Below, in pieces: positions 24,012 to 49,347 of a DNA stretch of 64,000 bases. The stretch lies in assembly GCA_963700985.1 (NCBI GenBank), contig OY969554.1, forward strand, positions 1,824,001 to 1,888,000, in the 5' to 3' direction. Source of the DNA: an uncultured Chlamydiales bacterium (GTDB taxonomy: Bacteria > Chlamydiota > Chlamydiia > Chlamydiales > Rhabdochlamydiaceae). Position numbers and translations under genes: made by a program. The notes beneath the pieces were generated by a model. It saw only the letters and a program-made list of their open reading frames with translations. It was not told the DNA's origin and did not search any database. Positions within the stretch are counted from its first letter, which is position 1. Each line of letters begins with the position of its first letter.

Positions 24012-26951
24012 TCAGAGCTCTTGGCGTTTTAGCATTTCGGCGAAGAGGCCTTTGGCTGCAGCGAGTTCTTTATACGTGCCAACTTCGATGATTTTTCCTT
24101 GATCCATCACATAGATACGATCGGCGTTGCGTGTAGTGCTCAGCCGGTGTGCGATCATAACGCGTGTGATATTGAGCTCGGTTAAATTTTTGTCGATTAG
24201 ATTTTGAGATGTATTATCGAGCGCGCTTGTCGCTTCATCGAGGATGAGGATTTTTGGCGAAGCAGCAAGTGCCCTAGCCAGATATAGGCGTTGCCGCTGC
24301 CCTCCAGAGACTGTATTGCCTCCTGTCGACATGACCGTATTTAATCCCATGGGTAAGGCTTTAAGGTCATCATCTAAATTGGCCATATGGATGGCTTTTT
24401 GAATGTCCTCAATGGACAACACCTTAGATCCTGCGATGATATCATAAATGCTCCCGCCTAACATGCCTTCGTTTTGAAGAACGGTGCCTATCTGTTTTCT
24501 AATTTGGCGGATGTCGTAATCAAAAATACTACGATCGTCAAAGAGAATTTCACCTTGTTCGGGTGTTTCGAATCCGAGCAGAAGTCTAACGATGGTCGAT
24601 TTGCCGCATCCTGAAGGGCCCACAATCGCAATCATTTCGCCAGGATGAGCGAAAAGGGAGACATTATCCAATGCGAGTGGCCCATCGGGAGAATAACGGA
24701 AATTGACATGCTCAAGCGCAATGGAACCTTTGAGCACGATGGGCGCACTCTTTTCAGGTAACGCTTCAGTTTCCGATTGAACGAGGACTTTTGATCTCTC
24801 CCAATAGGGCAGAACAGTCCAGATTGAAAATGCCATTTGGAAGACTTCGAGCGCGGAAGCTATTAAAAGCGCATAGGCAGTATAAAAGCCTAAGAAAGCT
24901 CCGAGCGACTGCGAAGGGTTTATCGAGGATGAGACTTTTGGATCGTTGCGGAATGTGATGATTGCTACCCAAAAGAGGAGTGTGGCCATGAGCACAGGAA
25001 AGATCCGATAGACAAGTCTTTCAATTGCGGTAACGATAAGCAGCTTTAAATCGATCTTCTTTTTCTGGCTGAAGACATTTCCCCATAAGCTAAAAAAGCG
25101 GCCCTCTGCGCCTGAGATGCGGATTTTTGCGATGCCGGAGATGATCTGTACGACGATTCCCTGAATTGTGGTTCCCAAAGCGAAACTCTTTTTGGTCAGT
25201 CTGACTTCTATGGCAATGCAAAGAGTAAAAACAAGAGCGGCTACGAAGAGGCCGATTAATCCTATGGTGGCAAATTTTGAATTATAAGCGAAAAGCATCG
25301 CGAAGTAATAAAGGCAGAAAATGGAGGTCACGCAAAGATTTATGAGATTAGAGCTAGTCTCGTAGCGAACTTTTTCGTAAGCCATGATCCGCGTAATGAG
25401 GTCACCCGAGGTGAACTTGCGAAAAAATGAGAGTGGGAGCTGAAGGACGCGTAACCAGAGACCAGTTTGCATTTCGCTTTTAGATAATCCTTCGATTCGC
25501 AATACGAGAAAATTTTTGCAAAAAGTATAAATTGTCGTGCTAAATGAAACCAGGAGCAGTCCGAGCACAAATTGCTTAAAAAGAGAGATATCTGTTCCAA
25601 AAAGGATCTTGTCGAAGAGCTCTCGCGTAGCAAAAGGAAGAAACAGGTTGAGAGAGCCGATGACTATCGCAATAAAGAGAATCCAAACAAAATTCTGTTT
25701 ATTGTATTCAAACGAGAACTTTGCAATGCGGAAAAGGGTCATTTCTCCTTGTGGAAATCCTCGATAAAAAACGTAGGCGCGCTTGGAAAGCTCTTTGGCT
25801 AGCAGAGGGGTAAGTGTTAGCCTTTTTTTCTCTTGAAGATCGACAATCTCATAATTGTTTTTGATGGGCATCAAAGCCACAGGGCGCTGCTCTGGGCCAA
25901 AGAATCCCAAAAGTGGTTGCATGGCCTCTTTCCACCACCGACCCTTCAAAGTAATGCGACGGAAGTTGATATTGCTATTCAAGCAGATCTCGATCACTTC
26001 ATCATCGACTGTCGTGGCTTTTGTGGGCGTATTATCAAAGCTTAGCCCCATTGTTCGACCAATTAGATCGCACGTTTGAAAAAGAAGGTCTCCTTGATGC
26101 AAATGCGCAACCGTGATCTCTTCATTTAAAACAGAGCCGAGGCTGAGCAGCGTCTGCTCGATTAAGTCTTCTTCAAGGGTCTGTTTCTTTTGCAACCTTA
26201 AAAGGGCATTTTCTAGCTCTTCATTCTTCTGTTTGACGACAGTTTTAAAAAGCTCATATCCTAGTGCTTCAATTCCTTTCCAAAATTCAGGTTTCTCCAA
26301 AGCTTGAGTGGTTGAAAAAGTTGCCAGAGTCGATTCTACTTCACTTCTCAACCAGTGAGATTGCGTGATAGGATAGAGAGTTCCAGTTTCTTTGAAGAAT
26401 AAAGAGGAGGCTTCATCTAAAAAGCTGCAACTGCCTTTCAATACCTCTACCCAAAAAATGTGCTCTTTTTCTTCTGGTGTGAAGGATTTTTGTGGGCCAG
26501 CGACTTCTCCTGGCTGTAGATCTGTATTTTCACCTACTTTAAGCACCTTTTCAATGCGCTCTTCTCGATGTGGAAAAGGCGAAAATATTCGATGGATGTA
26601 ACTCTCGAGTAATTTGATAATGCTCTCTTTTAGGACAGCATCCTTAGCCATCTCTGCAAGCAGGGTATTTGCGGAGACTTTACGCAGCGTTGTTTTTCGC
26701 GGAGAGAGGAAAAAAAGGCCGTAGTTTTTTTCTTCAGATGTAGCTCTTCCCAGGATTAGATCGCCCTGTTTGATATGCGCGACAAAAATAGGTAGAAAGT
26801 GGGGATCTTTTGGATCGTAGAGAAATAGATCTCCAACCTCTTGCTCCATCACCCAAACAGTGAAGGGTTCATTGAGATTGTAGCGAACGCTGGCTTCAAG
26901 CGAGATCTCTTCGCCAATATGTGATGGCAGCACGAGTGAGCTATCTTGCAT
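24012..26951 (-). CDS. NHLP bacteriocin-system ABC transporter without peptidase domain (NHLM ABC2 type)
   Basis: 979 aa; long N-terminal region, RRITLKGRWWK..QPLLGF..PVAL block, TM domain, GPSGCGKST, VSGGQRQR, LDEATSALD. Confidence 0.88.
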   Translation of the reverse strand: MQDSSLVLPSHIGEEISLEASVRYNLNEPFTVWVMEQEVGDLFLYDPKDPHFLPIFVAHIKQGDLILGRATSEEKNYGLFFLSPRKTTLRKVSANTLLAEMAKDAVLKESIIKLLESYIHRIFSPFPHREERIEKVLKVGENTDLQPGEVAGPQKSFTPEEKEHIFWVEVLKGSCSFLDEASSLFFKETGTLYPITQSHWLRSEVESTLATFSTTQALEKPEFWKGIEALGYELFKTVVKQKNEELENALLRLQKKQTLEEDLIEQTLLSLGSVLNEEITVAHLHQGDLLFQTCDLIGRTMGLSFDNTPTKATTVDDEVIEICLNSNINFRRITLKGRWWKEAMQPLLGFFGPEQRPVALMPIKNNYEIVDLQEKKRLTLTPLLAKELSKRAYVFYRGFPQGEMTLFRIAKFSFEYNKQNFVWILFIAIVIGSLNLFLPFATRELFDKILFGTDISLFKQFVLGLLLVSFSTTIYTFCKNFLVLRIEGLSKSEMQTGLWLRVLQLPLSFFRKFTSGDLITRIMAYEKVRYETSSNLINLCVTSIFCLYYFAMLFAYNSKFATIGLIGLFVAALVFTLCIAIEVRLTKKSFALGTTIQGIVVQIISGIAKIRISGAEGRFFSLWGNVFSQKKKIDLKLLIVTAIERLVYRIFPVLMATLLFWVAIITFRNDPKVSSSINPSQSLGAFLGFYTAYALLIASALEVFQMAFSIWTVLPYWERSKVLVQSETEALPEKSAPIVLKGSIALEHVNFRYSPDGPLALDNVSLFAHPGEMIAIVGPSGCGKSTIVRLLLGFETPEQGEILFDDRSIFDYDIRQIRKQIGTVLQNEGMLGGSIYDIIAGSKVLSIEDIQKAIHMANLDDDLKALPMGLNTVMSTGGNTVSGGQRQRLYLARALAASPKILILDEATSALDNTSQNLIDKNLTELNITRVMIAHRLSTTRNADRIYVMDQGKIIEVGTYKELAAAKGLFAEMLKRQEL

Positions 26952-27027: not shown

Positions 27028-27142
27028 ATTTAACCACAGAGGCACAGAGAACGCAGAGTAAAGAAGGAAGATTATTTTTTTGTTTCTCTTACAAAAAACG
27101 GCTTCTTTCTTCTCTGTGTCCTCTGTGCCTCTGTGGTTAAAT
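27028..27142. repeat. Palindromic intergenic element with 9-nt periodic arms (CACAGAG units)
   Basis: TTTAACCACAGAGGCACAGAGAACGCAGAG vs CTCTGTGTCCTCTGTGCCTCTGTGGTTAAA: 30-bp inverted repeat with 2 mismatches. Confidence 0.8.
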
Positions 27143-27193
27143 TATTTAAGATTTATTTTGATTTTTGAGGGGTGTTGTGCAAAATGCAGATCT

Positions 27194-28507
27194 ATGCAGC
27201 CAATTTTTTTTCGTGGAACACCATTTTCAGCGCGCAAAGGCTTCTTTGAGGGGACTCATCGCATCCAAAGCCCTGAGCAGACTTGGAAGCAGATTGCACC
27301 GCTTGCACCTTTAATTGGAGTGTCTCGGGTTGCGAACATCACAGGTTTAGACAAGATTGGCATTCCAGTGACGATTTCGATTCGGCCTGGGGCTTTCACG
27401 TTATCTATCTCTTCGGGCAAGGGCCTCTCTCTGGTAACTGCGCAGGTCTCTGGCCTAATGGAATCTTTGGAAGTTTTCTGTGCAGAAACAGCCAATCTTC
27501 CCTACCTTCTTTTTTCCTATAACGAACTGATTAAAAGATATACGGCGCCGCTTTTAACCCATTTATCTTATCGATCTCACGCGTTATTTCATCCTGATCT
27601 GCCGGAAAAATGGGTTTTAGCATGGGATCTATTTGGACAAGAAGAGGTGGCAGTTCCTCTGCAAAGCGTCATGCAAGATTATCGCGTAAGCAGAAATGAA
27701 AATCAGGAGCTTTACTCAATTCGCATGGACACAAATGGCCTGGCTTCAGGATGCCATTTTTTAGAAGCAGTTGCCTCCGGGGTTTATGAACTCATCGAGC
27801 GCGATGCGATGAGCTGCTATCTCGCTCTTAAAGAGCGCCACCATCAGCCATTGAAAAGAGTGAAGCTTGATACGATCCGGTATCAGAGTGTGTTAGAAGC
27901 TCTGGAACAGATTGAAAGAGCAGGAGTTCAAACCCTCTTATACGATTGCACGGTGGATACTGAAGTGCCCGTATTTAAGGCCTCTATTTATGATAAGCAC
28001 CTTCGCCATAGTATGGGCATCTGCGAAGGCTATGGCGCACATCTCGATCCAGAGGTAGCCATGATTCGTGCCATTACTGAAGCCGTTCAGGGAAGAACCA
28101 TCGCGATTTCGGGCTCCCGAGATGACATTTTTATGTCACAATTCAATGCCATGAAGAAGAATGATGTAGCTGAAATTATTCAAATCATCGAAGCCAATCC
28201 TGCTACCATCGATGCCGCTTCTTATACATCTGGTGCAGGTGCCACTTTAGAAGAAGATATTCACATTCTCATGCGTAAACTTAAAAATGCCGGCCTTTCA
28301 CAACTGCTGGTGTTCGACTTAAGCCAGGAAAAACTGGGCATGTCTGTGGTACGTGTCATTATCCCGGGTCTAGAAGGATACTATTCTCGTAATTTTGATC
28401 CGGGATTAAGAGCTAAGAAGTTTATCTCAGAAAGAGCAACTACAATTAAAAAAACGCCATGCGATCAAAGAGAAGGTACGCACTTTCCTGCAGGAGCGCT
28501 TTTATGA
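27194..28507 (+). CDS. ycaO: YcaO-family enzyme, TfuA-associated (thioamide-forming type)
   Basis: GTHR, SRVANITGLDKIGIPV, SGKG, MESLE, TNGLASG, ELIERDA, GYGAH, RAITEAVQGR, VVRVIIPGLE. Start moved to ATG 27194 because the longer ORF runs through the palindrome. Confidence 0.93.
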   Translation: MQPIFFRGTPFSARKGFFEGTHRIQSPEQTWKQIAPLAPLIGVSRVANITGLDKIGIPVTISIRPGAFTLSISSGKGLSLVTAQVSGLMESLEVFCAETANLPYLLFSYNELIKRYTAPLLTHLSYRSHALFHPDLPEKWVLAWDLFGQEEVAVPLQSVMQDYRVSRNENQELYSIRMDTNGLASGCHFLEAVASGVYELIERDAMSCYLALKERHHQPLKRVKLDTIRYQSVLEALEQIERAGVQTLLYDCTVDTEVPVFKASIYDKHLRHSMGICEGYGAHLDPEVAMIRAITEAVQGRTIAISGSRDDIFMSQFNAMKKNDVAEIIQIIEANPATIDAASYTSGAGATLEEDIHILMRKLKNAGLSQLLVFDLSQEKLGMSVVRVIIPGLEGYYSRNFDPGLRAKKFISERATTIKKTPCDQREGTHFPAGALL

Positions 28508-29898
28508 CCATTTCTCCCGATGATATTCTCATTTTTCTTGGACCATCTCTTCCAGTTGAAGAGGCAAAATCAATCTTAGATGCCCGCTATCTCCCGCCGG
28601 CCAAACAGGGAGATATTCTGAGCGTTGCAGTGCAGTTTCAACCCAAAGTTATCGGATTGATCGATGGAACCTTTATGCAGACCTTATCGGTGTGGCATAA
28701 AGAGATCCTCTATGCGATCGATCAGGGGATCATCGTATTAGGAGCCAGCAGCATGGGCGCGTTGCGCGCAGCTGAAACCGCTGACTTTGGCATGATCGGG
28801 GTTGGAAAAGTCTTCGAGCTCTACCATAATGGCACGGTGATCGATGATGATGAAGTTGTGCTCATCCACGGGCCCAAGGAAGAAGGCTATATTCCGCTTT
28901 CCCTTCCTCTGATTAACATACGTTTTACCTTAGAGCGCGCTAAAAACGAGCAGAGAATACCTGCGGATGTTTGCGAGGCCTTCTTTGCGCTTGCACAAGA
29001 GCTTTATTATCCTGAAAGAACCATCGAGAACATTATTGAGTGCGCTCGTAAAAAAGGCTTTTCAGAAGAATTAATCGGCGATGTCACTGGGTGGATGCAA
29101 GCACACTATGTCGATCAGAAAGCTGATGATGCACGCCTTCTCTTACAAAAAATCAAAGCTCTATCTCTTTCAGAGACAGTAGAAAAAAAAGAATTTTCAA
29201 GGACATCGCTTTTTGAGGTGCTCTTTCATGCAGATAGGCGCCTCTCTTTCTCCGAAGTTGAGCTTACCCAAAGGCAGATTGCTCAGCATTTTGCGCTTCA
29301 TGATCCGCATTTTCCAGAGATGCAGTTCAATGCGATGAATCAAGCTATGGCCAATGCGCTTTCTAAAATTTACAAGGTTGAGGTTTCCGTTGAGGAGATC
29401 AAAGAGGAAAAAAAGCGCTTTCGCAGACGCCATCTGCTTCAGGAAGATTGGATGTGGACATCTTGGCTTGTACGCAATCATTTAACCGAGAAAGAGTTCT
29501 CTTCTCTTGCAGAAGAAAAAGCAAAAACACGCAAGCTTCACGCCTGTTTTTCCAGTGGGCAATTTCCTTGGAAGCAGGGAAAGTTTTTACTTAACGAGCT
29601 TAAATGGGCTGATCGATACGAAGAGGGCCTAGAAAAAGCAGTTGCACAGGAAGAAATATTAAACGAAATCGCCCGCTATTACAATGAGACTGATTCATCA
29701 GAAATCTATCAAGCAAAGTTCATCGACGCTCACAAGGAGGCGACTGGCTGGAATCCCGATATGCCTCTTAAGGAGTGGGCCGAAGAAGCTGGCTTCGAGG
29801 ATCTTTTAAAGCTTGTCACGGAGATTCACAAATCTAAGATCGCGCGCGATCATCTTAATAAGATAGTCGAAGCCGGCCTTGACGAAGCCAGTCAATAA
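28504..29898 (+). CDS. tfuA: TfuA-like protein with long C-terminal extension
   Basis: FLGPSL, PPAKQGD, IDGTF...SVWHKEI, GASSMGALRAAE, GMIGVGKVF, DDDEV, DQKADDA; ATGA overlap with the ycaO stop. Confidence 0.93.
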   Translation: MTISPDDILIFLGPSLPVEEAKSILDARYLPPAKQGDILSVAVQFQPKVIGLIDGTFMQTLSVWHKEILYAIDQGIIVLGASSMGALRAAETADFGMIGVGKVFELYHNGTVIDDDEVVLIHGPKEEGYIPLSLPLINIRFTLERAKNEQRIPADVCEAFFALAQELYYPERTIENIIECARKKGFSEELIGDVTGWMQAHYVDQKADDARLLLQKIKALSLSETVEKKEFSRTSLFEVLFHADRRLSFSEVELTQRQIAQHFALHDPHFPEMQFNAMNQAMANALSKIYKVEVSVEEIKEEKKRFRRRHLLQEDWMWTSWLVRNHLTEKEFSSLAEEKAKTRKLHACFSSGQFPWKQGKFLLNELKWADRYEEGLEKAVAQEEILNEIARYYNETDSSEIYQAKFIDAHKEATGWNPDMPLKEWAEEAGFEDLLKLVTEIHKSKIARDHLNKIVEAGLDEASQ

Positions 29899-29929: not shown

Positions 29930-30208
29930 TTACTCCAAAGTCCAGATTACTACTTGTGTAGCCGCTGCCGCCGCAATTTGTTTTAAATCTGCCTCATCAA
30001 GTTCGGTGGCATTGGTGGGAGCTGGCGGTAAAAGAAAAGTGAAATGACGCGCATCGTCTTCTTGAATACGCACTTCAACATTGGCAGGAATGTCATAGCC
30101 CATTTCTTTTAAGGTCTCTTTAGGCTTAGCGATGAGTTTTTTGCGAAAAGCTGGATCTTTCCAAGCTTTTGCAATAATTTTTGCCCTTATGTCTTTATTT
30201 TTTGGCAT
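29930..30208 (-). CDS. NHLP-family RiPP precursor 1 (tail ...IAAA-AATQVVIWTLE)
   Basis: Leader IIAKAWKDPAFRKKLIAKPK..L..G...P..V.V..ED.....F.LP and ELDEADLKQIAAA. Confidence 0.92.
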   Translation of the reverse strand: MPKNKDIRAKIIAKAWKDPAFRKKLIAKPKETLKEMGYDIPANVEVRIQEDDARHFTFLLPPAPTNATELDEADLKQIAAAAATQVVIWTLE

Positions 30209-30292: not shown

Positions 30293-30571
30293 TTAATCTC
30301 TCTTTAACTGGCGGGCTGCAACAAACCCTGCAGCAGCAATTTGTTTCAGTGCAGCTTCATCCAGCGTTTGAGCATTCTTAGGTGCAGCCGGTAAAACAAA
30401 AGTGAAATGACGTGCATCGTCTTCCTGGATACGCACCTCTACGTTAGCAGGAACGTCGTAGCCTATTTCTTTTAGAGTTTCTTTGGGCTTAGCGATGAGT
30501 TTTTTGCGAAAAGCTGGATCTTTCCAAGCTTTAGCAATAATTTTTGCTCTTATATCTTCACTTTTCGGCAT
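30293..30571 (-). CDS. NHLP-family RiPP precursor 2 (tail ...IAAAG-FVAARQLKRD)
   Basis: Same NHLP leader. Confidence 0.92.
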   Translation of the reverse strand: MPKSEDIRAKIIAKAWKDPAFRKKLIAKPKETLKEIGYDVPANVEVRIQEDDARHFTFVLPAAPKNAQTLDEAALKQIAAAGFVAARQLKRD

Positions 30572-30621: not shown

Positions 30622-30900
30622 TTATTCTGGTCTTATTTGTAGGCCATAAGCAAGACCGGCCGCTGCGAGTTGTTTTAGCTCTGCTTCATCCAGCTCCTGA
30701 AAGTCCTTAGGAATGGCTGGTAAAACAAAAGTGAAATGACGCGCATCGTCTTCCTGAACACGTACCTCGATGTTCGCGGGGGCTTCATAACCCATTTCTT
30801 TTAAAGCCTCTTTGGGCTTAGCGATGAGTTTTTTGCGAAAAGCTGGATCTTTCCAAGCTTTAGCAATAATTTTTGCTCTTATATCTTCATTTTTTTTCAT
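30622..30900 (-). CDS. NHLP-family RiPP precursor 3 (tail ...LAAAG-LAYGLQIRPE)
   Basis: Same NHLP leader. Confidence 0.92.
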   Translation of the reverse strand: MKKNEDIRAKIIAKAWKDPAFRKKLIAKPKEALKEMGYEAPANIEVRVQEDDARHFTFVLPAIPKDFQELDEAELKQLAAAGLAYGLQIRPE

Positions 30901-30923: not shown

Positions 30924-31199
30924 TCATCTTGATCCAAGACGGAACCCTACACCCCGACCTGCAGCAACGTTCTTCAACTCCGCTTCATCCAGCTCGGTGA
31001 TGTTTTTAGGAGCAATCGGCAACACAAAAGTGTAATGACGCGTATCATCTTCCTGGATACGCACCTCTACGTTGGCAGGAACGTCGTAGCCCATTTCTTT
31101 TAGGGTCTCTTTAGGCTTAGTGATGAGTTTTTTGCGGAAAGCTGGATCTTTCCAAGCTTTAGCAATGATTTTGGCTCTTATGTCTTCATTTTTTGACAT
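30924..31199 (-). CDS. NHLP-family RiPP precursor 4 (tail ...VAAG-RGVGFRLGSR)
   Basis: Same NHLP leader. Confidence 0.92.
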   Translation of the reverse strand: MSKNEDIRAKIIAKAWKDPAFRKKLITKPKETLKEMGYDVPANVEVRIQEDDTRHYTFVLPIAPKNITELDEAELKNVAAGRGVGFRLGSR

Positions 31200-31230: not shown

Positions 31231-31512
31231 TCAATGAGGAAATCCACCACCACAAAAAATCCAGACACTCCCAGCAGCAACTTGTTTTAGCTCTGTGTCA
31301 TTCAGTTCGCCGAGATTAGTGGGTGCAGGAGGCAGGGGGAAAGTGAAATGACGCGCGTCATCTTCTTGTATACGCACCTCTACGTTAGCAGGAATGTCAT
31401 AGCCCATTTCTTTTAGAGTTTCTTTGGGCTTAGCGATGAGTTTTTTGCGGAAAGCTGGATCTTTCCAAGCTTTAGCGATGATTTTGGCTCTTATATCTTC
31501 ATTTTTTGGCAT
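31231..31512 (-). CDS. NHLP-family RiPP precursor 5 (tail ...VAAG-SVWIFCGGGFPH)
   Basis: Same NHLP leader; start set at MPKNED (31512) after an AAGGA RBS; only core with Cys. Confidence 0.92.
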   Translation of the reverse strand: MPKNEDIRAKIIAKAWKDPAFRKKLIAKPKETLKEMGYDIPANVEVRIQEDDARHFTFPLPPAPTNLGELNDTELKQVAAGSVWIFCGGGFPH

Positions 31513-31525: not shown

Positions 31526-31588
31526 TCATAGTGCATCCACTCCAATAACGTGCCCCTGACCCGCAGCAGCAATCTGCTTCAACTCTGC
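31526..31588 (-). pseudogene. Leaderless NHLP core cassette AELKQIAAAG-QGHVIGVDAL*
   Basis: Begins 2 nt after the precursor 6 stop; 31556-31588 matches 31624-31656 at 30/33 nt; has its own TGA but no ATG/RBS. Confidence 0.8.
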
Positions 31589-31590
31589 GA

Positions 31591-31872
31591 TCAATAAACG
31601 TTCTTTGCAATGTGCCCCATGCTCTGACCCGCAGCAGCAACTTTCTTCAACTCTGCTTCATCCAGCTCGTTGATGTTTTTCGGAGCGATCGGCAATACAA
31701 AAGTGAAATGACGTGCATCATCTTCTTGTACACGCACCTCTACGTTAGCAGGAATGTCGTAGCCCATTTCTTTTAGAGTTTCTTTGGGCTTAGCAATGAG
31801 TTTTTTGCGGAAAGCTGGATCTTTCCAAGCTTTAGCGATGATTTTGGCTCTTATATCTTCATTTTTTGGCAT
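31591..31872 (-). CDS. NHLP-family RiPP precursor 6 (tail ...VAAAG-QSMGHIAKNVY)
   Basis: Same NHLP leader; AAGGAG RBS; start at MPKNED. Confidence 0.92.
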   Translation of the reverse strand: MPKNEDIRAKIIAKAWKDPAFRKKLIAKPKETLKEMGYDIPANVEVRVQEDDARHFTFVLPIAPKNINELDEAELKKVAAAGQSMGHIAKNVY

Positions 31873-32981: not shown

Positions 32982-33226
32982 TACCCTCCTGCAACAGGGG
33001 GGATTAGTAAGACGGTGTCTCCCTCATTCAGCGAGGTCTCCCAAGAGGAAATTTTAGAGTTGACCGATGCCTTGACTTGCGACTCTAAGAGCTTAAAGGC
33101 ATGACGCTGTTTAAGCTCTTGATAGAGTTCGCGAACCGTTGCTACCTCAGACTCAACAACCTCTTCAGCAAGGCCTCTTTCTTGTCTGAGCAAGGCGTAA
33201 TAACCCACGCGAATTTTCTTTTTCAT
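32981..33226 (-). CDS. MoaD/ThiS-family sulfur carrier protein
   Basis: 81 aa beta-grasp size; ends LNEGDTVLLIPPVAGG (C-terminal Gly-Gly); stop overlaps the moeB start. Confidence 0.92.
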   Translation of the reverse strand: MKKKIRVGYYALLRQERGLAEEVVESEVATVRELYQELKQRHAFKLLESQVKASVNSKISSWETSLNEGDTVLLIPPVAGG

Positions 33227-33268: not shown

Positions 33269-33547
33269 CTAAGGCTGCAGTGATAGGTATGCTAAGCTAG
33301 CTCCTGCGGCAGCCACCTGTTTCAACTCTGCTTCATTTAACTCATTTACGTTCTTAGGAGCAGCCGGCAGCACAAAAGTAAAATGACCGGCGTCATCTTG
33401 CTGGATACGCACCTCAATATTAGCAGGAACGTCGAAGCCCATTTCTTTTAGAGTCTCTTTGGGCTTAGCAATGAGTTTTTTGCGGAAAGCTGGATCTTTC
33501 CAAGCTTTAGCAATGATTTTAGCTTTCAGATCTTCATTTTTTGCCAT
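33269..33547 (-). CDS. NHLP-family RiPP precursor 7 (tail ...VAAAG-ASLAYLSLQP)
   Basis: Same NHLP leader; GGAG RBS; first gene of the minus-strand operon. Confidence 0.92.
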   Translation of the reverse strand: MAKNEDLKAKIIAKAWKDPAFRKKLIAKPKETLKEMGFDVPANIEVRIQQDDAGHFTFVLPAAPKNVNELNEAELKQVAAAGASLAYLSLQP

Positions 33548-33604: not shown

Positions 33605-33642
33605 TTCTATACAGATATTTCTAAAACAGGATAGGTTCAGAG

Positions 33643-38526: not shown

Positions 38527-38550
38527 ACACTATTGGAAGGGGGTTGATCC

Positions 38551-44072: not shown

Positions 44073-44162
44073 TTATTTTTTATCCAAGCTTTTATCTTCT
44101 TTCAGCATGTTTAGCGTTCCGCGTCTTATTACTGAGAAACTTTTTGCGCCATCTTCACCCTG
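44073..44162 (-). mobile_element. Probable ISAs1-family transposase C-terminal relic
   Basis: Startless frame EDGAKSFSVIRRGTLNMLKEDKSLDKK* resembles the ISAs1 consensus GAENFSxLRRIALNLLKxDKS (recalled from memory, not searched). Confidence 0.5.
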
Positions 44163-44189
44163 ACAAAAACTCCTTTTCCCAAGTCCTTA

Positions 44190-46394
44190 TTAGAGGTTGC
44201 CGGTTTGGACGAGATCGCGGTAGGTGCCTGGAGTGCTCTTGAGAGCTTCGTGGTTGCCTCTTTGGATGATTTTGCCTTTAGCAAGGACGATGATCTCATC
44301 GCAGTCACGAATGGAGCTTAGGCGGTGGGCGACCATCACGCATGAGCAGCCGCGCTGGCGAATATTTTGAATGATGGCTTCCTCGGTTTTGGTATCTAAG
44401 GAGCTTGTCGCTTCATCGAGCACGAGAATTTTGGGGTTGAGCAGAAGGCCGCGGGCAATTTCTAACCTCTGCCTTTGCCCGCCCCCGATATTCATGCCTC
44501 TTTCGGTCAATTGATAGGAGTAGCCGCCGGGCTTTTGCATGATTTCCTCGTGGATGCAGGCGTCTTTGGCCGCACGAATAATCTCATCATCACTCACGGT
44601 GTGATCATAGAGAGTAATGTTGTCTTTAATCGTTCCACTGAAGAGAAAGATCTCTTGATCGATTGTTGCAAGCGAAGCGAAGAGATCTTGCCTTGAATGC
44701 TCAAGGCGTGTTTTTCCATCGAAGAGAATATCTCCCGTCCAGGGTTGGACGAGCCCCGAAATCAATCTTCCAATTGTAGTCTTGCCGCACCCGGATGGCC
44801 CTACAAGCGCAATCTTTTGCCCAGGAGTGAGGTGCAAGTTGAAATCTTCGATAAAGGGTGGGTCGAGAGGTGAGTAGCCATAACTGACATTTCGCAATTC
44901 TAAATACCCTTCCAGGCGTTTTATGGGCTCTGTCCTCTCCTTATTCTTCTGAATGTCTTCATCTCTAAATAAGGGGTCGATGGGATTTTTCATGACATCA
45001 TCAATCCGGGCCATATCGATTTTGAGGTTCTGAATCGATTGGCCAAGATCCACGAGCTCTTTTACAGGAGTAGTAAAGTTAGTAATGAATAGTTGTAAGG
45101 AGGTGTAAAGACCCATGGTGAAATTCTCAGTCATGAGCATCCACCCACCAACTCCGAATAGAACTGTTGAAATAAGAGTCTGAGTGAAGGTGGGAAGAGA
45201 GATGCAGAAGACATTGATTTTGCCTAGCCGCTGCTCGGTGTTAAGTGATTTCTTAAAATATCCGATTAGCTTTGAGAAAAAAGCTGATTCATCACCCATC
45301 GCTTTGATCGACTCAATGCAACTTAAGCCTCCAATTGTAAATCCCATGAATTTGCCATAATCCTGTTGCAGCTTTGCATAGGCATCATTGCGACGCTTTT
45401 GCAGGAGCACAACAGCCACAAAATTGAGAGATGTTAACAGAATTACAATCACGGCGATGGTCGCGCTGAAAAGGAACATGAGGCTGGCGTAGATGATCAT
45501 GAAGAGCAGGCTTATGCAAGCAGGGGCAAGCCGGCCTGTGAGCTCATTGATTACTGTATCATTTAAGGAGAGACGATAAGCGATCTCTCCACCATAACGC
45601 TGTTGGAAAAATGTAATCGGAAGCTTAAGAATATGCATTAAATACTGGCCAGAAAGCGCGATGGAGAGCCTTGTATTCAGCCGGGTCAAAAGATATTGCT
45701 GTAGCCAGACCAAGAGTCCCGTCAATAGGACCAGCAGGCACATCGAAAAAATAAACCAATTTGACCAGGAGAACATATGTTTTTCGATGATGATGTCGAA
45801 AAATATCTTGTTAAAGAAAGGATATAGAGCGCCTGCAATCATGATGCAAAAACCGCTGAACAATAGAAAAAAGACCGCGGGTTTTGAATTTTTTAATCTG
45901 TCGAAGACGCCTGGCCAAATTGAAGGTGGCCTTCCAGAAGGTTTGAAGCTCTCAGTTTTAGCAAAAGTAAATACAATGCCGGAATAACTCTCTTCAAATT
46001 CAGAAAAGGGGATCTTTCTTGGACCAGAAGCCGGGTCATTGAGATACACATGGGTTTTCGAAAAACCCTCCACAACAAGAAAGTGACGAAAATCCCAGAG
46101 TACAATGAAGGGCAGTTCGAGTTCTTGTAGCTCCTCCACACTCTTTTTAAAGACTTTGGATTGCAGGCCGTAGGTCTCAGCCGCCTTTTTTATGTTTAGG
46201 GCGTTGCTGCCATCACGAGAGACGCCGCACTCAACCCGAAGCTCTTCTAAAGGGATAAAGTAGCCAAAATAGCCGAGAATGATGCCAAGAGAGGCCGCTC
46301 CACACTCTACGGCTTCCATTTGGATAACCGTCGGAGTTCGGACACGCTTTACGTGGCGCCAAGCTGAAAAAAAGGATTTCAGCTTCTCTATCAT
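44190..46394 (-). CDS. NHLP-system ABC transporter with C39 peptidase domain (NHLM ABC1 type)
   Basis: VRTPTVIQMEAVECGAASL, CGVSRDGS, HFLVVEG, NDPA; Walker A GPSGCGKTT, LDEATSSLD. Confidence 0.94.
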   Translation of the reverse strand: MIEKLKSFFSAWRHVKRVRTPTVIQMEAVECGAASLGIILGYFGYFIPLEELRVECGVSRDGSNALNIKKAAETYGLQSKVFKKSVEELQELELPFIVLWDFRHFLVVEGFSKTHVYLNDPASGPRKIPFSEFEESYSGIVFTFAKTESFKPSGRPPSIWPGVFDRLKNSKPAVFFLLFSGFCIMIAGALYPFFNKIFFDIIIEKHMFSWSNWFIFSMCLLVLLTGLLVWLQQYLLTRLNTRLSIALSGQYLMHILKLPITFFQQRYGGEIAYRLSLNDTVINELTGRLAPACISLLFMIIYASLMFLFSATIAVIVILLTSLNFVAVVLLQKRRNDAYAKLQQDYGKFMGFTIGGLSCIESIKAMGDESAFFSKLIGYFKKSLNTEQRLGKINVFCISLPTFTQTLISTVLFGVGGWMLMTENFTMGLYTSLQLFITNFTTPVKELVDLGQSIQNLKIDMARIDDVMKNPIDPLFRDEDIQKNKERTEPIKRLEGYLELRNVSYGYSPLDPPFIEDFNLHLTPGQKIALVGPSGCGKTTIGRLISGLVQPWTGDILFDGKTRLEHSRQDLFASLATIDQEIFLFSGTIKDNITLYDHTVSDDEIIRAAKDACIHEEIMQKPGGYSYQLTERGMNIGGGQRQRLEIARGLLLNPKILVLDEATSSLDTKTEEAIIQNIRQRGCSCVMVAHRLSSIRDCDEIIVLAKGKIIQRGNHEALKSTPGTYRDLVQTGNL

Positions 46395-47698
46395 GGATTT
46401 GTGTCCTTAGATAAGTGGCGAAAGATATACGGAGCTATTTTGTCAGGCAAAATGTACATGATGGGGGGCTTTTCATCTGTAATAGTAAGCACTGTGCCTG
46501 TTGTGCCTGAATCGAGTAGCCATGGCGGCCCTTGTCCGGTAGACCAGCGGTAACCACTCTGTGTATGTGGGTCTTGATCTAAGCGGATAATTGCGAGGTA
46601 GACCAGTTTATTGTCATCCTTAAGAAAGTCGACAATGTCTTTGTTTTTTACTTGAGCCATAAGTTCTTGGCTCGTCACAGGGTAAGGCGTGATAAACTGC
46701 GTGGTGCCGAGAAGATAGCCATATTCTTTTGGATCGACACCTGACACTTCGATTTCTGTCTTGAGATTAACATCTAAGCTCTCTCCAAATTCTGCTCCAT
46801 AACAAGCGACATATTGAAGGAGCTGACCTTTTTGAAGCGGCAGTTCCAAAGAAGCAATTTCCATGCCAGAATCGACGTGATCTCCAGCCGAGACGACAAT
46901 CTCTAATACTTTGCCTGTTTTTCCTGCATAAACATTCAAAAACTTATCTTGTAATTCGAGGCGAGCAAGCTCATCTTTTTGGGCATCAATCACAGCTTTC
47001 TTAGCATTGATCTCATCTTGGGCATAAGACTTAGAAAATTGCGCTTGCAGAGATGAAACTTGAGCCATGTTCGACTCAATATCGAGATGCGCTTGCTGAA
47101 GGGCATTTCGCGCATTTTCTACATCGCGAGGTGCTAAAATTCCTATTTGCTCAAGTCGAATTTTGGAAGCTAAATCTTTTTCTAAAAATGGGATCTTACT
47201 TTGGGCAGACTTCATGGCGAGTTGAGTGGCTTCGATCTGCTTTTGGATAGAACTTTTTCGCGCAGCGTCTTCAGATTCTATTCTTACATTATAGGCTTGA
47301 AGATCGTTTTCGCTGACCTGGATTTGTTCTTTTTTCAACTGAATATCGAGCGCAAGGGAGGCGTTTTGTAGCCTTGCGATTAAGGTTCCCTCTCCCACGA
47401 GCTGTCCAGCTGTAGCATAGACTCTATTTACAGTTCCTGCAATCGATGTAGTAATGACATAAGGTCCTTCTTGAGTAAGAGAGATTCCCGAGCCCTTTAC
47501 CTTAATAGGAATGGTTCCAAAGAAACTCCAGACAAGGGCTATGAAGATAATCGCAAACGAAGTGCTGAGCGTGAGCCAGCTTTTAGAGGTGACGATTTGC
47601 ATCAACTCTTCTAAATCTTCGGCAGAAGTCAACCTGGTAAATTTTGCTTTTTCGTTTTCCTTTTCGACAGCTTCAGGATTTGGATTTTCTGCTTCCAT
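46391..47698 (-). CDS. NHLP-system HlyD-family membrane fusion protein
   Basis: RLTSAEDLEELMQIV, TM segment, GTIPIKVKGSG, coiled coil, SGYRWSTGQGPP. Confidence 0.9.
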   Translation of the reverse strand: MEAENPNPEAVEKENEKAKFTRLTSAEDLEELMQIVTSKSWLTLSTSFAIIFIALVWSFFGTIPIKVKGSGISLTQEGPYVITTSIAGTVNRVYATAGQLVGEGTLIARLQNASLALDIQLKKEQIQVSENDLQAYNVRIESEDAARKSSIQKQIEATQLAMKSAQSKIPFLEKDLASKIRLEQIGILAPRDVENARNALQQAHLDIESNMAQVSSLQAQFSKSYAQDEINAKKAVIDAQKDELARLELQDKFLNVYAGKTGKVLEIVVSAGDHVDSGMEIASLELPLQKGQLLQYVACYGAEFGESLDVNLKTEIEVSGVDPKEYGYLLGTTQFITPYPVTSQELMAQVKNKDIVDFLKDDNKLVYLAIIRLDQDPHTQSGYRWSTGQGPPWLLDSGTTGTVLTITDEKPPIMYILPDKIAPYIFRHLSKDTNP

Positions 47699-47703: not shown

Positions 47704-49347
47704 CTATTCTCCAGGGGCTAATTTACAGCGTTCTTCAATGAAGCACTCAACTGGCGTAGAAGGAGTAGAGAGAACCACCGGATATGTCAATACATCCTCC
47801 ACTTCTGTCACAATTTCACCTTCTCGATCCCAACTGATAAGTGTTCCGGAAAGAAGACGCAGCTGCAGCAAATTCTCTGTAAATAGAGTTTGCGAATTGA
47901 TTAAGCTGAGAAGTGCAGTCAGCCAGTTATTTTCTAAAGTTAATACGACGAAGTAAGAACTGAGACCGTTTTGCAATTTTATTTTCTCCGCTTCCACAGT
48001 CTTTCGATATTCTTCAGCAGCCAGTTGGTTTTTCTTTACTTCTTCGAGCAGGGCGTTTGTGGATGTATAAGAGGTTTTAAAACTAGAGATAATCTGACTC
48101 TCTAAAAGATCCATATTCACGATGGCCTGAGACCTTAAAGCACGCTGCTGTTTGACAAGGCCTCTTGCGGTGTCATTGAAGATCGGGAATGAAAAGGTGA
48201 CTCCAACGGTGTAGTCTTTTTCTGGATTTTGCGCTCTAGTAGAGTCGAACACGTGTCTTGCCCTTCCGAGAGCCGCTGTATTAAGGAAATTCGCTTCACC
48301 GACGAGATCGACAGCTGGCAGAAGCGAATTTTTAGCCGATCTCAAGTTGAGCTCTGCGATTTTAATGAGAAGGTTTGCAGAGAGAATGTCAGCTCGATTA
48401 AAGGGGATTAGGTTGAGTAAGCTGTCATACCAAGTTAGATCTAGACCGCTATAAGTGTTGAAGTCTGGAAAATCCTCTATGTTGAACTCGGGAACCTGCT
48501 GATTTTCGTCAGGAATGAATCCCATGTTGAAAAGCAGAGTGTTATAGGCGGCTTTTAAATTTTGTTCGGCTTGAATTCGATTCGCTGTGGCTAGATTTAG
48601 ATCGGCATGCGGTTGATAAGCAGTTGTGTAGCCCTCTTGCCCCTCTTTAACCAACTCATCCGCATAGCGGGCAATTTCACAAAAACGCATCTCGAGATCT
48701 TTTTGAATAGCTAACACCTTTAAGGCAGAGACGTATTGCCAATACGCCGTAATCGAATTAAAGATCGCATTGGCGATATTCTGCACGTTTTGTAAGCGAA
48801 AGGCTTTGAGTTGTAGCCGCTGCGTCTCTTCGAGAGTAGTCTGTGGACTATACAGAAGGTTGCGCAAGAGCGGCTGATTAACCGATACCCCCACGGTGGT
48901 GGAATCTTGAGGCGAAGGGATAATTGTGGGGTTAATGATGTTGTCATTCGAGAAATTGATCGAATAGGTCGTTCCGAATCGAGAGAGCGTTTGCAACGAG
49001 ACTACGGTATTCGTGGTTCTTCCATGAAAATGGGTTTTATTTCCCGGAGGATTTTGAATATCTCTTTGAAACAGACGTGTTCCTTCTGAGGTTAGCAGGG
49101 GATTAAAAGCTCCCGTTGCCTGTTCAAGCAAGCCCTCTTGAGTCTTAATAGTAAGCTCGGATGTCTGCACAGACCATTGAAACTCAAGGGTATGCATGAT
49201 CACTTCATCCAAAGTAAGCAGAGGCTTTTCTTCCAAATACAGAATGGGCGCAGCGTGAACTGCAAGGGAAAACCCAACGACAAAAGCGATGGATAGATAG
49301 GCGAAAATCATGTCACTTCTGTGATATTTAAAATATTTGCTTGTCAC
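47704..49347 (-). CDS. TolC-family outer membrane efflux protein (start may be ATG 49311)
   Basis: Signal peptide, VNQPLLR, KNSLLPAVDL, GVTFSFPIFN, E..KLQNGLSS.F.VL repeats. Confidence 0.85.
   Translation of the reverse strand: MTSKYFKYHRSDMIFAYLSIAFVVGFSLAVHAAPILYLEEKPLLTLDEVIMHTLEFQWSVQTSELTIKTQEGLLEQATGAFNPLLTSEGTRLFQRDIQNPPGNKTHFHGRTTNTVVSLQTLSRFGTTYSINFSNDNIINPTIIPSPQDSTTVGVSVNQPLLRNLLYSPQTTLEETQRLQLKAFRLQNVQNIANAIFNSITAYWQYVSALKVLAIQKDLEMRFCEIARYADELVKEGQEGYTTAYQPHADLNLATANRIQAEQNLKAAYNTLLFNMGFIPDENQQVPEFNIEDFPDFNTYSGLDLTWYDSLLNLIPFNRADILSANLLIKIAELNLRSAKNSLLPAVDLVGEANFLNTAALGRARHVFDSTRAQNPEKDYTVGVTFSFPIFNDTARGLVKQQRALRSQAIVNMDLLESQIISSFKTSYTSTNALLEEVKKNQLAAEEYRKTVEAEKIKLQNGLSSYFVVLTLENNWLTALLSLINSQTLFTENLLQLRLLSGTLISWDREGEIVTEVEDVLTYPVVLSTPSTPVECFIEERCKLAPGE

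Follow-up and report, generated by a model that had tools for sequence, protein, structure and literature searches.

A chlamydial gene cluster predicted to make and export a library of short, sulfur-modified peptides

We describe a chlamydial gene cluster that is probably a thioamide RiPP cluster with an optional lanthipeptide synthetase (LanM) and exported products. We infer the chemical steps, substrates, cleavage site, and biological role from the genes, and we consider this explanation, including that the cluster is functional, probable. The host genome is closed, 2.07 Mb long, and 99% complete; the window, meaning the whole stretch of its DNA that was analyzed, covers 64,000 nucleotides. 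An earlier note on this DNA had listed the cluster genes, and each one proved to be an intact open reading frame (ORF) with a strong family match. All 19 cluster genes are open and full-length against family models, and all parts score over, or just under, the curated family cut-offs. The boundaries given in that note also stand, with nadE (21675-23321; family match) and an adjacent 182-aa ORF that matched no family on the left and epmA (49484-50560) and efp (50427-50993) on the right. So does the assignment to the chlamydiae, since NadE has its nearest relatives in chlamydial MAGs and the TLC ATP/ADP-translocase gave three matches in the host genome versus 0/14 control genomes.

Seven NHLP precursors are encoded in the window, all on the minus strand, as ORFs of 91-113 aa that match NHase_alpha, and all seven exceed the cut-off of TIGR03793 (leader_NHLP; p2, 77 bits vs 50.9). 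The set of seven recorded previously is therefore all present, but it reaches outside the window: three further precursors with the same leader (x1-x3) form two unlinked units about 259 kb off. All ten have one leader type, about 80 residues long and 65-85% identical to p2. Among the window precursors the leaders are 76-84% identical and the C-terminal ends hypervariable; in a DNA alignment, leader column identity is 0.9-0.97, and the cores and flanks are unconserved. The leader/core boundary is predicted from alignment only, with leaders ending in Ala-Gly, but in Ala-Ala in p1. The predicted cores are ATQVVIWTLE for p1 (29930..30208), FVAARQLKRD for p2 (30293..30571), LAYGLQIRPE for p3 (30622..30900), RGVGFRLGSR for p4 (30924..31199), SVWIFCGGGFPH for p5 (31231..31512, the ORF extending to 31572 with a probable start at 31512), QSMGHIAKNVY for p6 (31591..31872), and ASLAYLSLQP for p7 (33269..33547). 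Across all ten precursors the predicted cores have 8-12 residues, share no common motif, and lack Gly in four cases. Cys occurs in three, of which p5 is the only one in the window, and Ser, Thr, and Cys are all absent from two (p2 and p3). Such predicted cores are open only to a backbone-modifying enzyme.

The DNA alignment of the array also exposed a relic cassette (31526..31588, minus strand), which on translation proved to be an orphan leader end and a 10-aa core (AELKQIAAAG-QGHVIGVDAL-stop) without a leader body. In addition, the promoter region between the divergent p7 and lanM genes contains a 19-nt motif (33603..33621, minus strand) that recurs upstream of both unlinked precursor units and links the three units. 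With at most one mismatch it has only three sites in the 2.07-Mb genome, every one upstream of a precursor unit, and five shuffled genomes contained 0-2 sites even at up to three mismatches.

The enzymes YcaO and TfuA are, by sequence, nearest to a thioamide-forming pair. YcaO (27080..28507, plus strand; PF02624, 237.6 bits) probably starts at Met39 (27194), and its homologues begin to align at residues 33-42. Its best NCBIfam model is TIGR03266 (McrA-Gly thioamidation YcaO; 237 bits, below the cut-off of 365), and among solved structures it is closest to MJ1094 (6pe3, E 6e-35), followed by the cyanobactin heterocyclases MusD, TruD, and LynD (E 1e-19 to 3e-15). The TfuA is a long form (28459..29898, plus strand; PF07812, 151 bits, residues 69-188) with a probable start at 28504, which gives a 4-nt overlap (ATGA) with the ycaO stop. 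Its best NCBIfam model is NF033432 (225.9 bits, below the cut-off of 235.2), and, among solved proteins, the 217-aa TfuA 6xp8 aligns with residues 9-220 (E 2e-37). Because both scores fall below the equivalog cut-offs, the two proteins are relatives, not members, of the McrA pair. The roles of TfuA, ThiS, and YcaO were reportedly established by Mahanta in 2018 and Liu in 2021.

A predicted sulfur supply is encoded within the precursor array. The ThiS/MoaD carrier (32981..33226, minus strand; PF02597, 59 bits) ends in VAGG, and its stop is overlapped by the start of moeB (31923..32981, minus strand; PF00899, 238 bits), the gene for an E1 adenylyltransferase of the MoeB/ThiF type that carries a rhodanese tail at its C terminus. 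The nucleotide loop, zinc cysteines (CxxC motifs), and rhodanese Cys of MoeB are intact, and the MoeZ model NF005902 covers residues 7-349; the rhodanese match itself (20.3 bits; loop CRRGIRS) is just under the cut-off of 22.2. No paralogue of ThiS or MoeB was found elsewhere in the genome. Nor was MoaE, which was detected in 11/14 control genomes, and ThiG gave no match above cut-off, compared with detection in 13/14 controls. ThiS-MoeB, the sole such pair, would therefore be a dedicated sulfur relay. Alternatively, YcaO might form azolines or amidines, with MoeB as an E1-like docking partner and TfuA and ThiS as accessories. YcaO enzymes make both groups according to the RiPPER paper, and after MJ1094 the best solved matches here are MusD, TruD, and LynD. 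We consider this very unlikely, given that TfuA-associated YcaO enzymes are of the thioamide class and the McrA-type pair matches best, that two cores offer no Cys, Ser, or Thr nucleophile, that the MoeB sites are intact with translational coupling to a GG-ended ThiS, and that both a dehydrogenase and an RRE-bearing C-protein are absent from the cluster.

Dehydration and ring formation fit only part of the library. LanM (33643..36495, plus strand) is a class II lanthipeptide synthetase with a dehydratase and a LanC-like cyclase (TIGR03897, 817 bits vs a cut-off of 304; also PF13575 and PF05147). Among solved structures it is closest to LicM2 (6st5, E 4e-78) and CylM, and it carries the motifs WCHG and LCCG; the C-C-G motif of the LanC part is ProcM-like. 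The proposal that the peptides are "thioamidated and/or dehydrated" keeps its biosynthetic logic, but dehydration fits only a subset, because Ser, Thr, and Cys are all lacking from two cores and Cys occurs in only three. From the predicted cores, a thioether ring is possible in at most three of the ten. In two sister genomes (L001 and G031), the LanM-adjacent precursors have diverged leaders and Cys-rich cores, a kind of precursor missing from the window, so LanM is perhaps under-used here. LanM accompanies the module only in the host genus and one related MAG.

These observations raise the possibility of a division of labor, in which the precursors share a leader type and exporter but YcaO/TfuA acts on only some cores and LanM only on those with Ser, Thr, or Cys (p5, p7, x1-x3, and others), with no hybrid product. 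In both sister genomes, the LanM-side precursors have distinct leaders and Cys/Ser/Thr-rich cores, and those adjoining ThiS-MoeB/YcaO have short, Cys-poor cores. Moreover, the 19-nt motif is present at the p7/lanM promoter region and at both unlinked units, and every core in those units has Ser or Thr. Against this, all ten host precursors have one leader, so that LanM and YcaO would face an identical recognition element; in addition, thiS-moeB runs in the same direction as p7 and p6-p1. We regard a division of labor as doubtful but worth keeping in view. In favor of the preferred reading, in which LanM is optional, p7-thiS-moeB-p6...p1 lie on a single strand, and coupling of the genes is suggested by this operon layout of overlapping ends and a shared strand.

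Export would proceed through a complete type I system. ABC1 (44190..46394, minus strand; TIGR03796, 931 bits vs 853), NHLP exporter subunit 1 (PCAT), has an N-terminal C39 peptidase (PF03412, E 1e-34), and tblastn found no second C39-bearing ABC transporter in the genome. ABC2 (24012..26951, minus strand), exporter subunit 2, is a permease/ATPase without peptidase; TIGR03797 (714 bits vs 709.4) spans residues 288-977, and the extra N-terminal 288 aa matched nothing in Pfam or NCBIfam, an Atlas search giving only a sub-threshold lead (cNMP_binding, 0.85). The membrane-fusion protein is of the NHLP HlyD type (46391..47698, minus strand; TIGR03794, 190 bits vs 156), and its gene overlaps abc1 by 4 nt; next to it lies the gene for a TolC/OEP-like outer-membrane channel (47704..49347, minus strand; PF02321 in two stretches, E 2e-31; TIGR01844, 85 bits, below cut-off). 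The NHLP/Nif11 bacteriocin system that Haft, Basu, and Mitchell described in 2010 reportedly had a cyclodehydratase, a LanM, or a radical-SAM enzyme as its maturase, and its definition did not include a thioamidation partner of the TfuA type. Our locus resembles that system (TIGR03793-03797) in that its leader, ABC1, ABC2, and HlyD pass the cut-offs.

Between lanM and abc1 lies a mixed-strand block (36676..43974) of an Sfp-type PPTase (36676-37344, plus strand), a thiolase (37339-38526, minus strand), and an 1807-aa NRPS (38551-43974, minus strand) with the order T-Cy-A(Cys, embedded Ox)-T-TE. The earlier description of a thiazole NRPS is well founded: the Cy motif is DLLIGDAWS, and the oxidase insert between A8 and A9 has one solved-structure match, the NRPS oxidase BmdC (E 1.5e-5). 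Cys specificity of the A domain is presumed from a by-eye reading against the known code. In a search of 5.8 billion proteins, the insert region had no relative except one 98% identical protein. Like bacillamide BmdB/BmdC and EpoB-type Cy-A-Ox-T modules, this NRPS has a Cy DxxxxDxxS motif and a Cys-type A code, and it has a PPTase alongside; it differs in being a stand-alone single module whose first T has no A domain to load it and in its adjoining thiolase.

The NRPS is embedded in the physical sense, but its membership in the pathway is contradicted. GC3 in the block is 0.296-0.318, which among 908 long ORFs ranks no higher than the 2.4th percentile, compared with the 28th-93rd percentile for the RiPP genes. 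A 25-nt imperfect direct repeat, with copies inside the lanM 3' end (36445..36469, plus strand) and in the NRPS/ABC1 intergenic region (44147..44171, plus strand) that agree at 22/25 positions and lie 7702 nt apart, brackets exactly this block. Neither L001 nor G031 has the block within about 40 kb around TfuA. A strong Cy-A match occurs in none of the seven other TfuA genomes and in 11 non-TfuA genomes, and the block is unique to the host among the eight TfuA-bearing chlamydial genomes and one MAG. A true RiPP-NRPS hybrid, for example with a thiazole acyl cap, might still be argued from the position between lanM and abc1 and from a second sample of the same study (X2) that has identical pieces of both parts; the TE domain, however, points to free-acid release, and together with the composition, repeat, and distribution this leaves a hybrid extremely unlikely. 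By sequence, the block is a compositionally foreign insertion, a neighbor rather than a component of the RiPP pathway; acquired independently, it would yield an unrelated 2-substituted thiazole-4-carboxylate.

The RiPP module itself recurs among relatives. Long TfuA is present in 8/400 genomes of the phylum, the host included. Of the seven others, YcaO adjoins TfuA in six, ThiS-MoeB is present in five, NHLP or Nif11 precursors lie within 20 kb of TfuA in six, and five have PCAT-type ABC genes inside the same distance; the MAG locus L001 has all four features. A silent or decaying cluster without product would be consistent with the relic cassette, with the few suitable LanM substrates, and with genome G053, in which ThiS-MoeB and the nearby precursors are apparently lost and YcaO aligns only from residue 148. 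We nevertheless judge it unlikely, given 19 open, full-length genes, strong leader conservation over ten paralogues, and retention of the module across four genera.

Behind its N-terminal TfuA domain, the long TfuA carries a helical C-terminal domain of about 245 aa (29158-29898, plus strand) that is undescribed and matched nothing in Pfam or NCBIfam. The domain was found in 205 representative clusters and in most cases spans positions ~225-450 of proteins that are 440-480 aa long. Within 10 kb of TfuA, NHLP/Nif11 precursors occur at 22/44 long-form, 1/13 intermediate, and 0/23 short loci, and a C39 transporter at 16/44, 0/13, and 0/23, respectively, in counts that include related genomes (Azospirillum supplies 9 long and 11 short loci) and that used precursor search models seeded from chlamydial precursors, with 32/40 candidates confirmed by Pfam. 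Long-TfuA loci with such precursors fall under about nine phylum-level labels. The domain probably recruits the precursor peptide. It was modeled with AF2 (pLDDT 92), and a SurA-like peptide-binding nature has weak support: Foldseek gave no hit at E<=1e-3, the best VIA Z of 7.8 is inside the range of common arrangements, and hhalign against chlamydial SurA_N_3 proteins gave a probability of 1.3%. The association of long TfuA with precursors across phyla also bears on the idea that the target of YcaO-TfuA-ThiS-MoeB is a cellular protein, in the way that McrA is for the archaeal pair, and that the module sits among lanthipeptide genes by chance. The McrA-modifying pair is indeed the closest curated family match, but a methanogenesis context is absent, and with precursors and PCAT-type genes near TfuA in most of the chlamydial TfuA genomes and L001, we give this idea scarcely any credence.

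Among known systems, the archaeal McrA YcaO-TfuA (MJ1094, 6pe3/6peu; TfuA, 6xp8) provides the best curated and solved relatives of both enzymes, and the sulfur chemistry is, by analogy, presumably the same; it differs in acting on a protein rather than exported peptides and in its short, ~217-aa TfuA. Thioamitides (thioviridamide and thiostreptamide S4) and thiovarsolins likewise acquire RiPP backbone thioamides via YcaO-TfuA, but they are actinobacterial, have short unstructured leaders in place of the ~80-residue NHLP leader, use AviCys-forming and other tailoring enzymes absent here, and lack PCAT/T1SS export. Prochlorosin-type systems (ProcM with Nif11/NHLP precursors) similarly combine one LanM, many precursors (some unlinked in the genome), a long conserved leader, hypervariable cores, and PCAT export; their cores are longer and Cys/Ser/Thr-rich, in contrast to the 8-12 residues and three Cys cores seen here, where a complete thioamidation module is added. 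In the clusters listed by Malit et al. (2021, PMC8120280), YcaO-TfuA adjoins double-glycine Nif11/NHLP-type precursors and dedicated transporters, and Simkania, itself a chlamydia, is among the genera whose TfuA clusters have Nif11-like precursors. That listing gives no product, TfuA architecture, or chlamydial survey, and relative to its clusters our locus has NHLP rather than Nif11 leaders, a LanM, and ten dispersed precursors. The earlier statement that no characterized pathway in Chlamydiae has this combination agrees with the searches made, yet the combination is less novel than that note supposed, with Simkania already listed, long TfuA in 8/400 genomes, and long-TfuA loci with such precursors in several phyla. 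The kind of pathway has been flagged by genome mining and has no characterized example; what is added here is a larger library, a dedicated relay, a foreign NRPS block, and the association of the TfuA C-domain.

In sum, the interpretation of NHLP precursors, YcaO/TfuA, the cluster's own ThiS-MoeB, and C39/type I export as one system is supported by gene content and comparison, but with LanM serving a subset and the NRPS outside. The suggestion that the peptides serve in defense or in manipulating the host is speculative. At least ten precursors with a common ~80-residue NHLP leader and hypervariable 8-12-residue cores would enter the pathway. The Gly-Gly end of ThiS would be adenylated by MoeB-rhodanese and then made a thiocarboxylate, from which TfuA would release sulfur to YcaO, and YcaO would activate a core backbone amide with ATP to give the thioamide. 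LanM would additionally dehydrate Ser/Thr where present, but could close a thioether ring in none but the three Cys cores. The C39 domain of ABC1 would then cut the leader after its Ala-Gly or Ala-Ala end, and ABC1, ABC2, HlyD, and TolC would carry the ~10-residue products over both membranes. The source organism is an obligately host-dependent soil chlamydia, and it most likely exports sulfur-modified products of about ten residues, made from about ten gene-encoded peptides by chemistry that we infer from their genes.

The RiPP cluster at 24012-49347 is real and intact. The ORF listing and the Pfam and NCBIfam scans recovered, each in its place, all of the genes that the earlier note had named, no stretch between 24012 and 49347 remains without annotation, and that reading proved largely right, with families scoring over the curated NHLP-system and LanM cut-offs. 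In the NCBIfam scan, the C39-peptidase exporter subunit (ABC1; TIGR03796, 930.7 bits versus a cut-off of 853.3), the second NHLP ABC subunit (ABC2; TIGR03797, 714 versus 709.4 bits), and the HlyD protein (TIGR03794, 189.9 versus 156.2 bits) all exceeded their thresholds and are predicted to form one NHLP bacteriocin export system. LanM is full-length, matching TIGR03897 with 817.3 bits (cut-off, 304) over residues 42-938 as a DUF4135 dehydratase joined to a LanC-like cyclase; its relatives of solved structure are LicM2 and CylM. The ycaO and tfuA genes are adjacent, overlap by 4 nt, and encode PF02624 (237.6 bits) and PF07812 (151.1 bits) domains, respectively, which is the gene arrangement expected of a thioamide-forming pair. 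The first 288 residues of ABC2 (26088-26951, minus strand) matched no Pfam or NCBIfam family; this N-terminal extension is partly conserved in a Nostoc ABC2 (tblastn alignment from residue 26), and Atlas features gave a subthreshold lead to cNMP_binding. Pfam and NCBIfam likewise returned no match for the 182-aa ORF at 23440-23988.

The cluster is a variant of known thioamide RiPP systems and not a new kind. Both equivalog models for McrA-glycine thioamidation scored under their cut-offs (TIGR03266, 237.4 versus 365; NF033432, 225.9 versus 235.2), which makes the window's YcaO and TfuA relatives of the McrA-type pair and not members of it. Thioamitide (thioviridamide-like) membership was rejected, as no HFCD flavoprotein, kinase/lyase pair, or thioviridamide-like precursor occurs in any ORF of 24012-49347 and the precursors are of the NHLP type. 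Proteusin membership, which calls for a radical-SAM epimerase or other proteusin maturases alongside the NHLP leader, was also rejected, as family scans found no radical-SAM gene in the cluster, and cyanobactin membership was considered and discarded. The degree of novelty claimed earlier was overstated; Malit et al. 2021 (PMC8120280) lists genera in which TfuA clusters contain Nif11-like precursors, Simkania being one of them. The RiPPER paper color-codes nitrile-hydratase-like peptides near actinobacterial tfuA genes, and Dharamshi et al. 2022 describes chlamydial families whose clusters include NRPS-like and RiPP-like ones.

The window belongs to a genome (G000) represented by one closed contig of 2,067,302 bases that is 99% complete. 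The nearest relatives of NadE are from chlamydial MAGs (best, 82% identity), the genome has three matches to the TLC ATP/ADP-translocase (0 of 14 control genomes), and the best DNA sample match for the window is a soil metagenome. A complete rRNA operon lies at 1-4985, ~19 kb upstream of the cluster, with a 16S gene cut by the window edge, a 23S gene, and a 5S gene. A chimeric assembly, which the earlier note had named as a way in which the locus could be artifactual, is unlikely: the contig is closed and single, and RiPP genes flank the NRPS block (36676-43974) on both sides, so that a chimera would need two misjoins. Among the pieces listed for sequencing run X1, contigs of at most 1.2 kb gave depth in 30/30 bins of 31500-50500, and a second sample held identical pieces of both parts of the cluster. 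Two further runs (X3 and X4) yielded diverged fragments only.

The precursors form a larger library than the earlier note had described; its seven in the window (p1-p7) stand, but 12 genes across G000 score over the curated leader_NHLP cut-off of TIGR03793 (50.9 bits; p2, 77.1 bits), of which 7 are in the window. The seven window precursors have leaders that are 76-84% identical, ending in AAAG or AAG (AAAA in p1) as a putative double-glycine-type cleavage motif, followed by hypervariable cores, and their C-terminal ends cannot be aligned. At the DNA level, per-column conservation is 0.9-0.97 across the leader and collapses in the core and flanks. Outside the window, this leader recurs in three precursors at G000 44187-46543 (L110:6187-8543), ~259 kb away around the circle, with cores IASWFFPC, GEVLCGHLSM, and QAQHAFTTGLDL; another two precursors, with a diverged leader, map to G000 1437079-1438963. 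If cleavage directly follows the aligned Ala-Gly, each of the ten precursors that share the leader has a core of 8-12 residues, and Cys occurs together with Ser/Thr in 3/10, Ser/Thr alone in 5/10, and neither in 2/10 (p2 and p3). The three unlinked precursors form two units, with which a gene for a SAM methyltransferase of the CMAS type (44666-45859) is interleaved; the neighboring genes encode an MIP channel together with an RHS-repeat/DUF687 protein of 1760 aa.

Directly after the p6 stop, at 31526-31588 on the minus strand, lies an orphan leader end with a 10-residue core (AELKQIAAAGQGHVIGVDAL) and no leader body; this dead cassette is a relic of recombination that turns cassettes over in the array. 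A 19-nt motif (GAAATATCTnTATAnAAAT) may be an operator or promoter shared by the dispersed units. It occurs with at most one mismatch at only three sites in G000 (window 33603-33621, and G000 44518-44536 and 46602-46620), in every case on the upstream side of a precursor unit, with the window site in the divergent p7/lanM promoter region, and shuffled genomes gave 0-2 sites even with up to 3 mismatches allowed.

The sulfur relay is dedicated to this pathway. ThiS (PF02597, 59 bits) ends in Gly-Gly, and MoeB (PF00899, 238 bits) has two CxxC motifs (Zn cysteines) and, in a rhodanese tail whose Pfam score of 20.3 is slightly below the cut-off of 22.2, the Cys loop CRRGIRS. Searches of the closed, 99%-complete genome by tblastn found no second ThiS, MoeB, YcaO, TfuA, or LanM. 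MoaE was not found in G000 (found in 11/14 control genomes), nor was ThiG above cut-off (13/14 control genomes); thus, the ThiS-MoeB pair cannot serve molybdopterin or thiamine synthesis.

We infer the chemical steps of the pathway as follows. The MoeB-rhodanese protein would convert ThiS to a thiocarboxylate, TfuA would release the sulfur of ThiS to YcaO, and YcaO with ATP would make a thioamide from a backbone amide within the core; these roles of TfuA, ThiS, and YcaO reportedly go back to Mahanta in 2018 and Liu in 2021. LanM would dehydrate Ser/Thr, with cyclization onto Cys possible in three cores. The leader would then be removed by the C39 domain of ABC1, which is the only C39 exporter in G000, and the product would leave the cell via ABC1, ABC2, HlyD, and TolC.

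The earlier note had also described a thiazole NRPS embedded in the locus. The NRPS is present and has the domains for thiazole formation, but its place in the pathway did not hold up. Its domain order is T-Cy-A-T-TE (Pfam: C, A, two PP-binding, and TE), the Cy signature is DLLIGDAWS (pattern DxxxxDxxS), and the A-domain specificity code, read by eye, is putatively of the Cys type. An insert of ~400 residues between A8 and A9 has as its only relative of solved structure the NRPS oxidase BmdC (E 1.5e-5), and a homologue search with the insert found a single protein, 98% identical. The protein is thus predicted to be a thiazole-forming module with Cy, Cys-activating A, Ox, carrier, and TE domains. 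When 908 long ORFs (mean, 0.442) are ranked by GC content at third codon positions (GC3), the PPTase (0.296), thiolase (0.316), and NRPS (0.318) genes fall at the 0.8th-2.4th percentile and the RiPP genes at the 28th-93rd. A 25-nt imperfect direct repeat (22/25), at 36445-36469 inside the 3' end of lanM and at 44147-44171, exactly brackets the block, which is missing from the DNA examined around TfuA in a further chlamydial MAG (L001) and in genome G031. Elsewhere in the phylum, 11 genomes encode strong Cy-A relatives (37-46% identity), and 0/11 of these genomes have TfuA. The low GC3, the bracketing repeat, the absence from L001 and G031, and the Cy-A relatives without TfuA together indicate that the block is a foreign neighbor, acquired separately and extraneous to the RiPP pathway. 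The 182-aa ORF, the PPTase, and the thiolase had no tblastn match in related loci.

Within the phylum, a long TfuA was found in 8/400 sampled genomes (4/212 genera) and additionally in L001. We compared ~40 kb around each TfuA where the contig allowed (6.4 kb in G336), with the seven TfuA genomes other than G000 as the denominator and L001 counted separately. YcaO lies beside TfuA in 6/7 genomes and in L001 (tblastn), ThiS-MoeB is nearby in 5/7 (G031, G247, G308, G060, and G324) and in L001, and PCAT-type ABC genes, of the C39-peptidase exporter type, are nearby in 5/7 and in L001. ThiS-MoeB was not found in the DNA around TfuA in G053 or on the 6.4-kb contig of G336, and PCAT-type ABC genes were not found in the ~40 kb examined in G031 and G324. 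The module is accompanied by NHLP precursors in the window's genus (G031 and G336) and L001 and by Nif11 precursors in G060, G324, G247, and G308. In G053 (L015/L016), where a long TfuA is retained along with ABC genes, the YcaO alignment does not start before residue 148, and ~38 kb around TfuA yielded no match to ThiS, MoeB, or a precursor; the module may be decaying in this genome.

LanM has a narrower distribution. Full-length LanM within the examined DNA was limited to G000, G031, and L001 (two copies in L001), and G336 has one LanM on a different contig. More broadly, DUF4135 proteins occur in 45/401 genomes of the phylum, with LanM-sized ORFs in 9 of these, including G000. Precursors adjacent to LanM in L001 and G031 have diverged leaders and cores rich in Cys/Ser/Thr; those by ThiS-MoeB or YcaO have short, Cys-poor cores, and all of the window precursors carry the leader type of this second group. 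In L001, the stretch from the LanM genes to YcaO also holds two ORFs, of 366 aa (3526-4626) and 394 aa (8640-9824), that have no counterpart in the window.

TfuA itself extends well beyond its recognized domain. Residues 9-220 match a solved TfuA of 217 residues (6xp8, E 2e-37), and no Pfam or NCBIfam model matches the C-terminal domain of ~245 residues that follows. A homologue search with this domain found only 3 close proteins; the full HMMER scan of 1.84 billion representatives placed it in 205 clusters, 118 of them at E<=1e-10, mostly at positions ~225-450 of 440-480-residue proteins and in some cases in proteins of 250-300 residues. Its AlphaFold model is mostly helical (pLDDT 92.2, pTM 0.82, 80-row alignment), and Foldseek gave no match at E<=1e-3. 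In VIA-align, SurA, PEB4, PrsA, or trigger factor made up 7/10 top rows over model residues ~25-135, with Z values of 5.3-7.8 that, per the tool, can reflect a common arrangement. Atlas features gave weak SurA_N family matches (0.90-0.91, few shared features), and PF13624 (SurA_N_3) weakly matched 15/80 members of the C-domain family (best E, 0.0031); families other than this and TfuA itself matched at most 2/80. An hhalign comparison with 15 chlamydial SurA_N_3 proteins gave a probability of 1.3%. Since these profile and fold matches are weak, the likeness to SurA-type chaperones is a lead rather than a finding.

The genomic association of the long TfuA with NHLP/Nif11 precursors is firmer than this structural likeness. 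By full-length TfuA alignment, the 80 loci closest to the window's, among at least 561 confirmed matches, comprised 44 long-form, 13 intermediate, and 23 short-form loci. In this set, where related genomes do not count as independent (Azospirillum alone contributes 9 long and 11 short loci), some contigs are short, and the precursor search models were seeded from chlamydial precursors, NHLP/Nif11-type precursors lay within 10 kb of 22/44 long, 1/13 intermediate, and 0/23 short forms, and a C39 transporter lay within 10 kb of 16/44, 0/13, and 0/23, respectively. Pfam confirmed 32/40 candidate precursors from these 80 loci (29 Nif11 and 3 NHase_alpha), and the positive long-form loci among them fall under ~9 phylum-level labels: Chlamydiota, Nitrospirota, Cyanobacteria, Actinomycetota, Myxococcota, Chloroflexia, Alphaproteobacteria, Gemmatimonadota, and Acidobacteria. 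Many Nif11 precursors at the non-chlamydial long-TfuA loci L116-L154 show recurring core types, for example (S/T)(S/T)xxW with a hydrophobic, Ala/Gly-rich tail behind it or a stretch of 7-9 Thr ahead of V(T/F)AA(A/S)SAA; an Azospirillum precursor (L144) carries four copies of SASAIETADG(R/Y)ALAP plus a fifth, diverged copy.

A joint reading of these data is possible, and we offer it tentatively, as a proposal that we consider rather doubtful in its full extent. Long-form TfuA would mark an unrecognized thioamide RiPP class under the ~9 phylum-level labels, in which the helical C-terminal domain, possibly related to SurA/trigger factor, would take over the part of an RRE and capture large, folded precursors with NHLP/Nif11 leaders for YcaO. 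The class would have merged with a ProcM-like LanM in this chlamydial genus to give a dispersed, coregulated library of peptides of ~10 residues with thioamide, dehydro, or lanthionine groups, secreted by an obligate intracellular bacterium into the host vacuole via a single PCAT/type I system.

A second RiPP-like locus, at G000:C1:1437079-1440090 (L111:6079-9090), is a tandem duplication of a unit comprising a diverged-leader NHLP precursor and a protein. The precursor C-terminal ends are ...SGAGDDYFPH and ...AAGGEGPSDYISDKYIHYGK, and the proteins (363 and 373 aa, 52% identical to each other) had no Pfam or NCBIfam match. An AF2 model with a pLDDT of 81.7 shows five alpha-alpha-beta-beta repeats, and of its 117 Foldseek matches at E<=1e-3, the best 50 are all aromatic (ABBA/PT-barrel) prenyltransferases. 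This locus probably makes prenylated NHLP peptides that rely on the window's PCAT exporter.

Backbone thioamides are rare. To our knowledge, characterized YcaO-TfuA systems act only on one protein (McrA) or on short-leader actinobacterial peptides, and we know of no reconstitution of the long NHLP/Nif11-leader thioamide family, which mining studies have listed. In the literature covered, which lies mostly outside subscription journals, neither a characterized product of this type of cluster nor an account of the C-terminal TfuA domain was found. As a test case, the locus is compact and complete: it combines the precursors, YcaO, and TfuA with a ThiS-MoeB relay and an exporter of its own. An undescribed TfuA domain that tracks the NHLP/Nif11 leader type gives a concrete hypothesis for precursor recognition, and ten very short hypervariable cores behind one leader would be a natural platform for thioamide-containing decapeptides. 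In a 2 Mb energy-parasitic chlamydial genome, roughly 20 kb is devoted to secreted modified peptides, and this peptide cluster, together with the second, prenyltransferase-type NHLP locus, argues for chemical interactions with hosts, or with competitors inside the host, as the putative role of these peptides.
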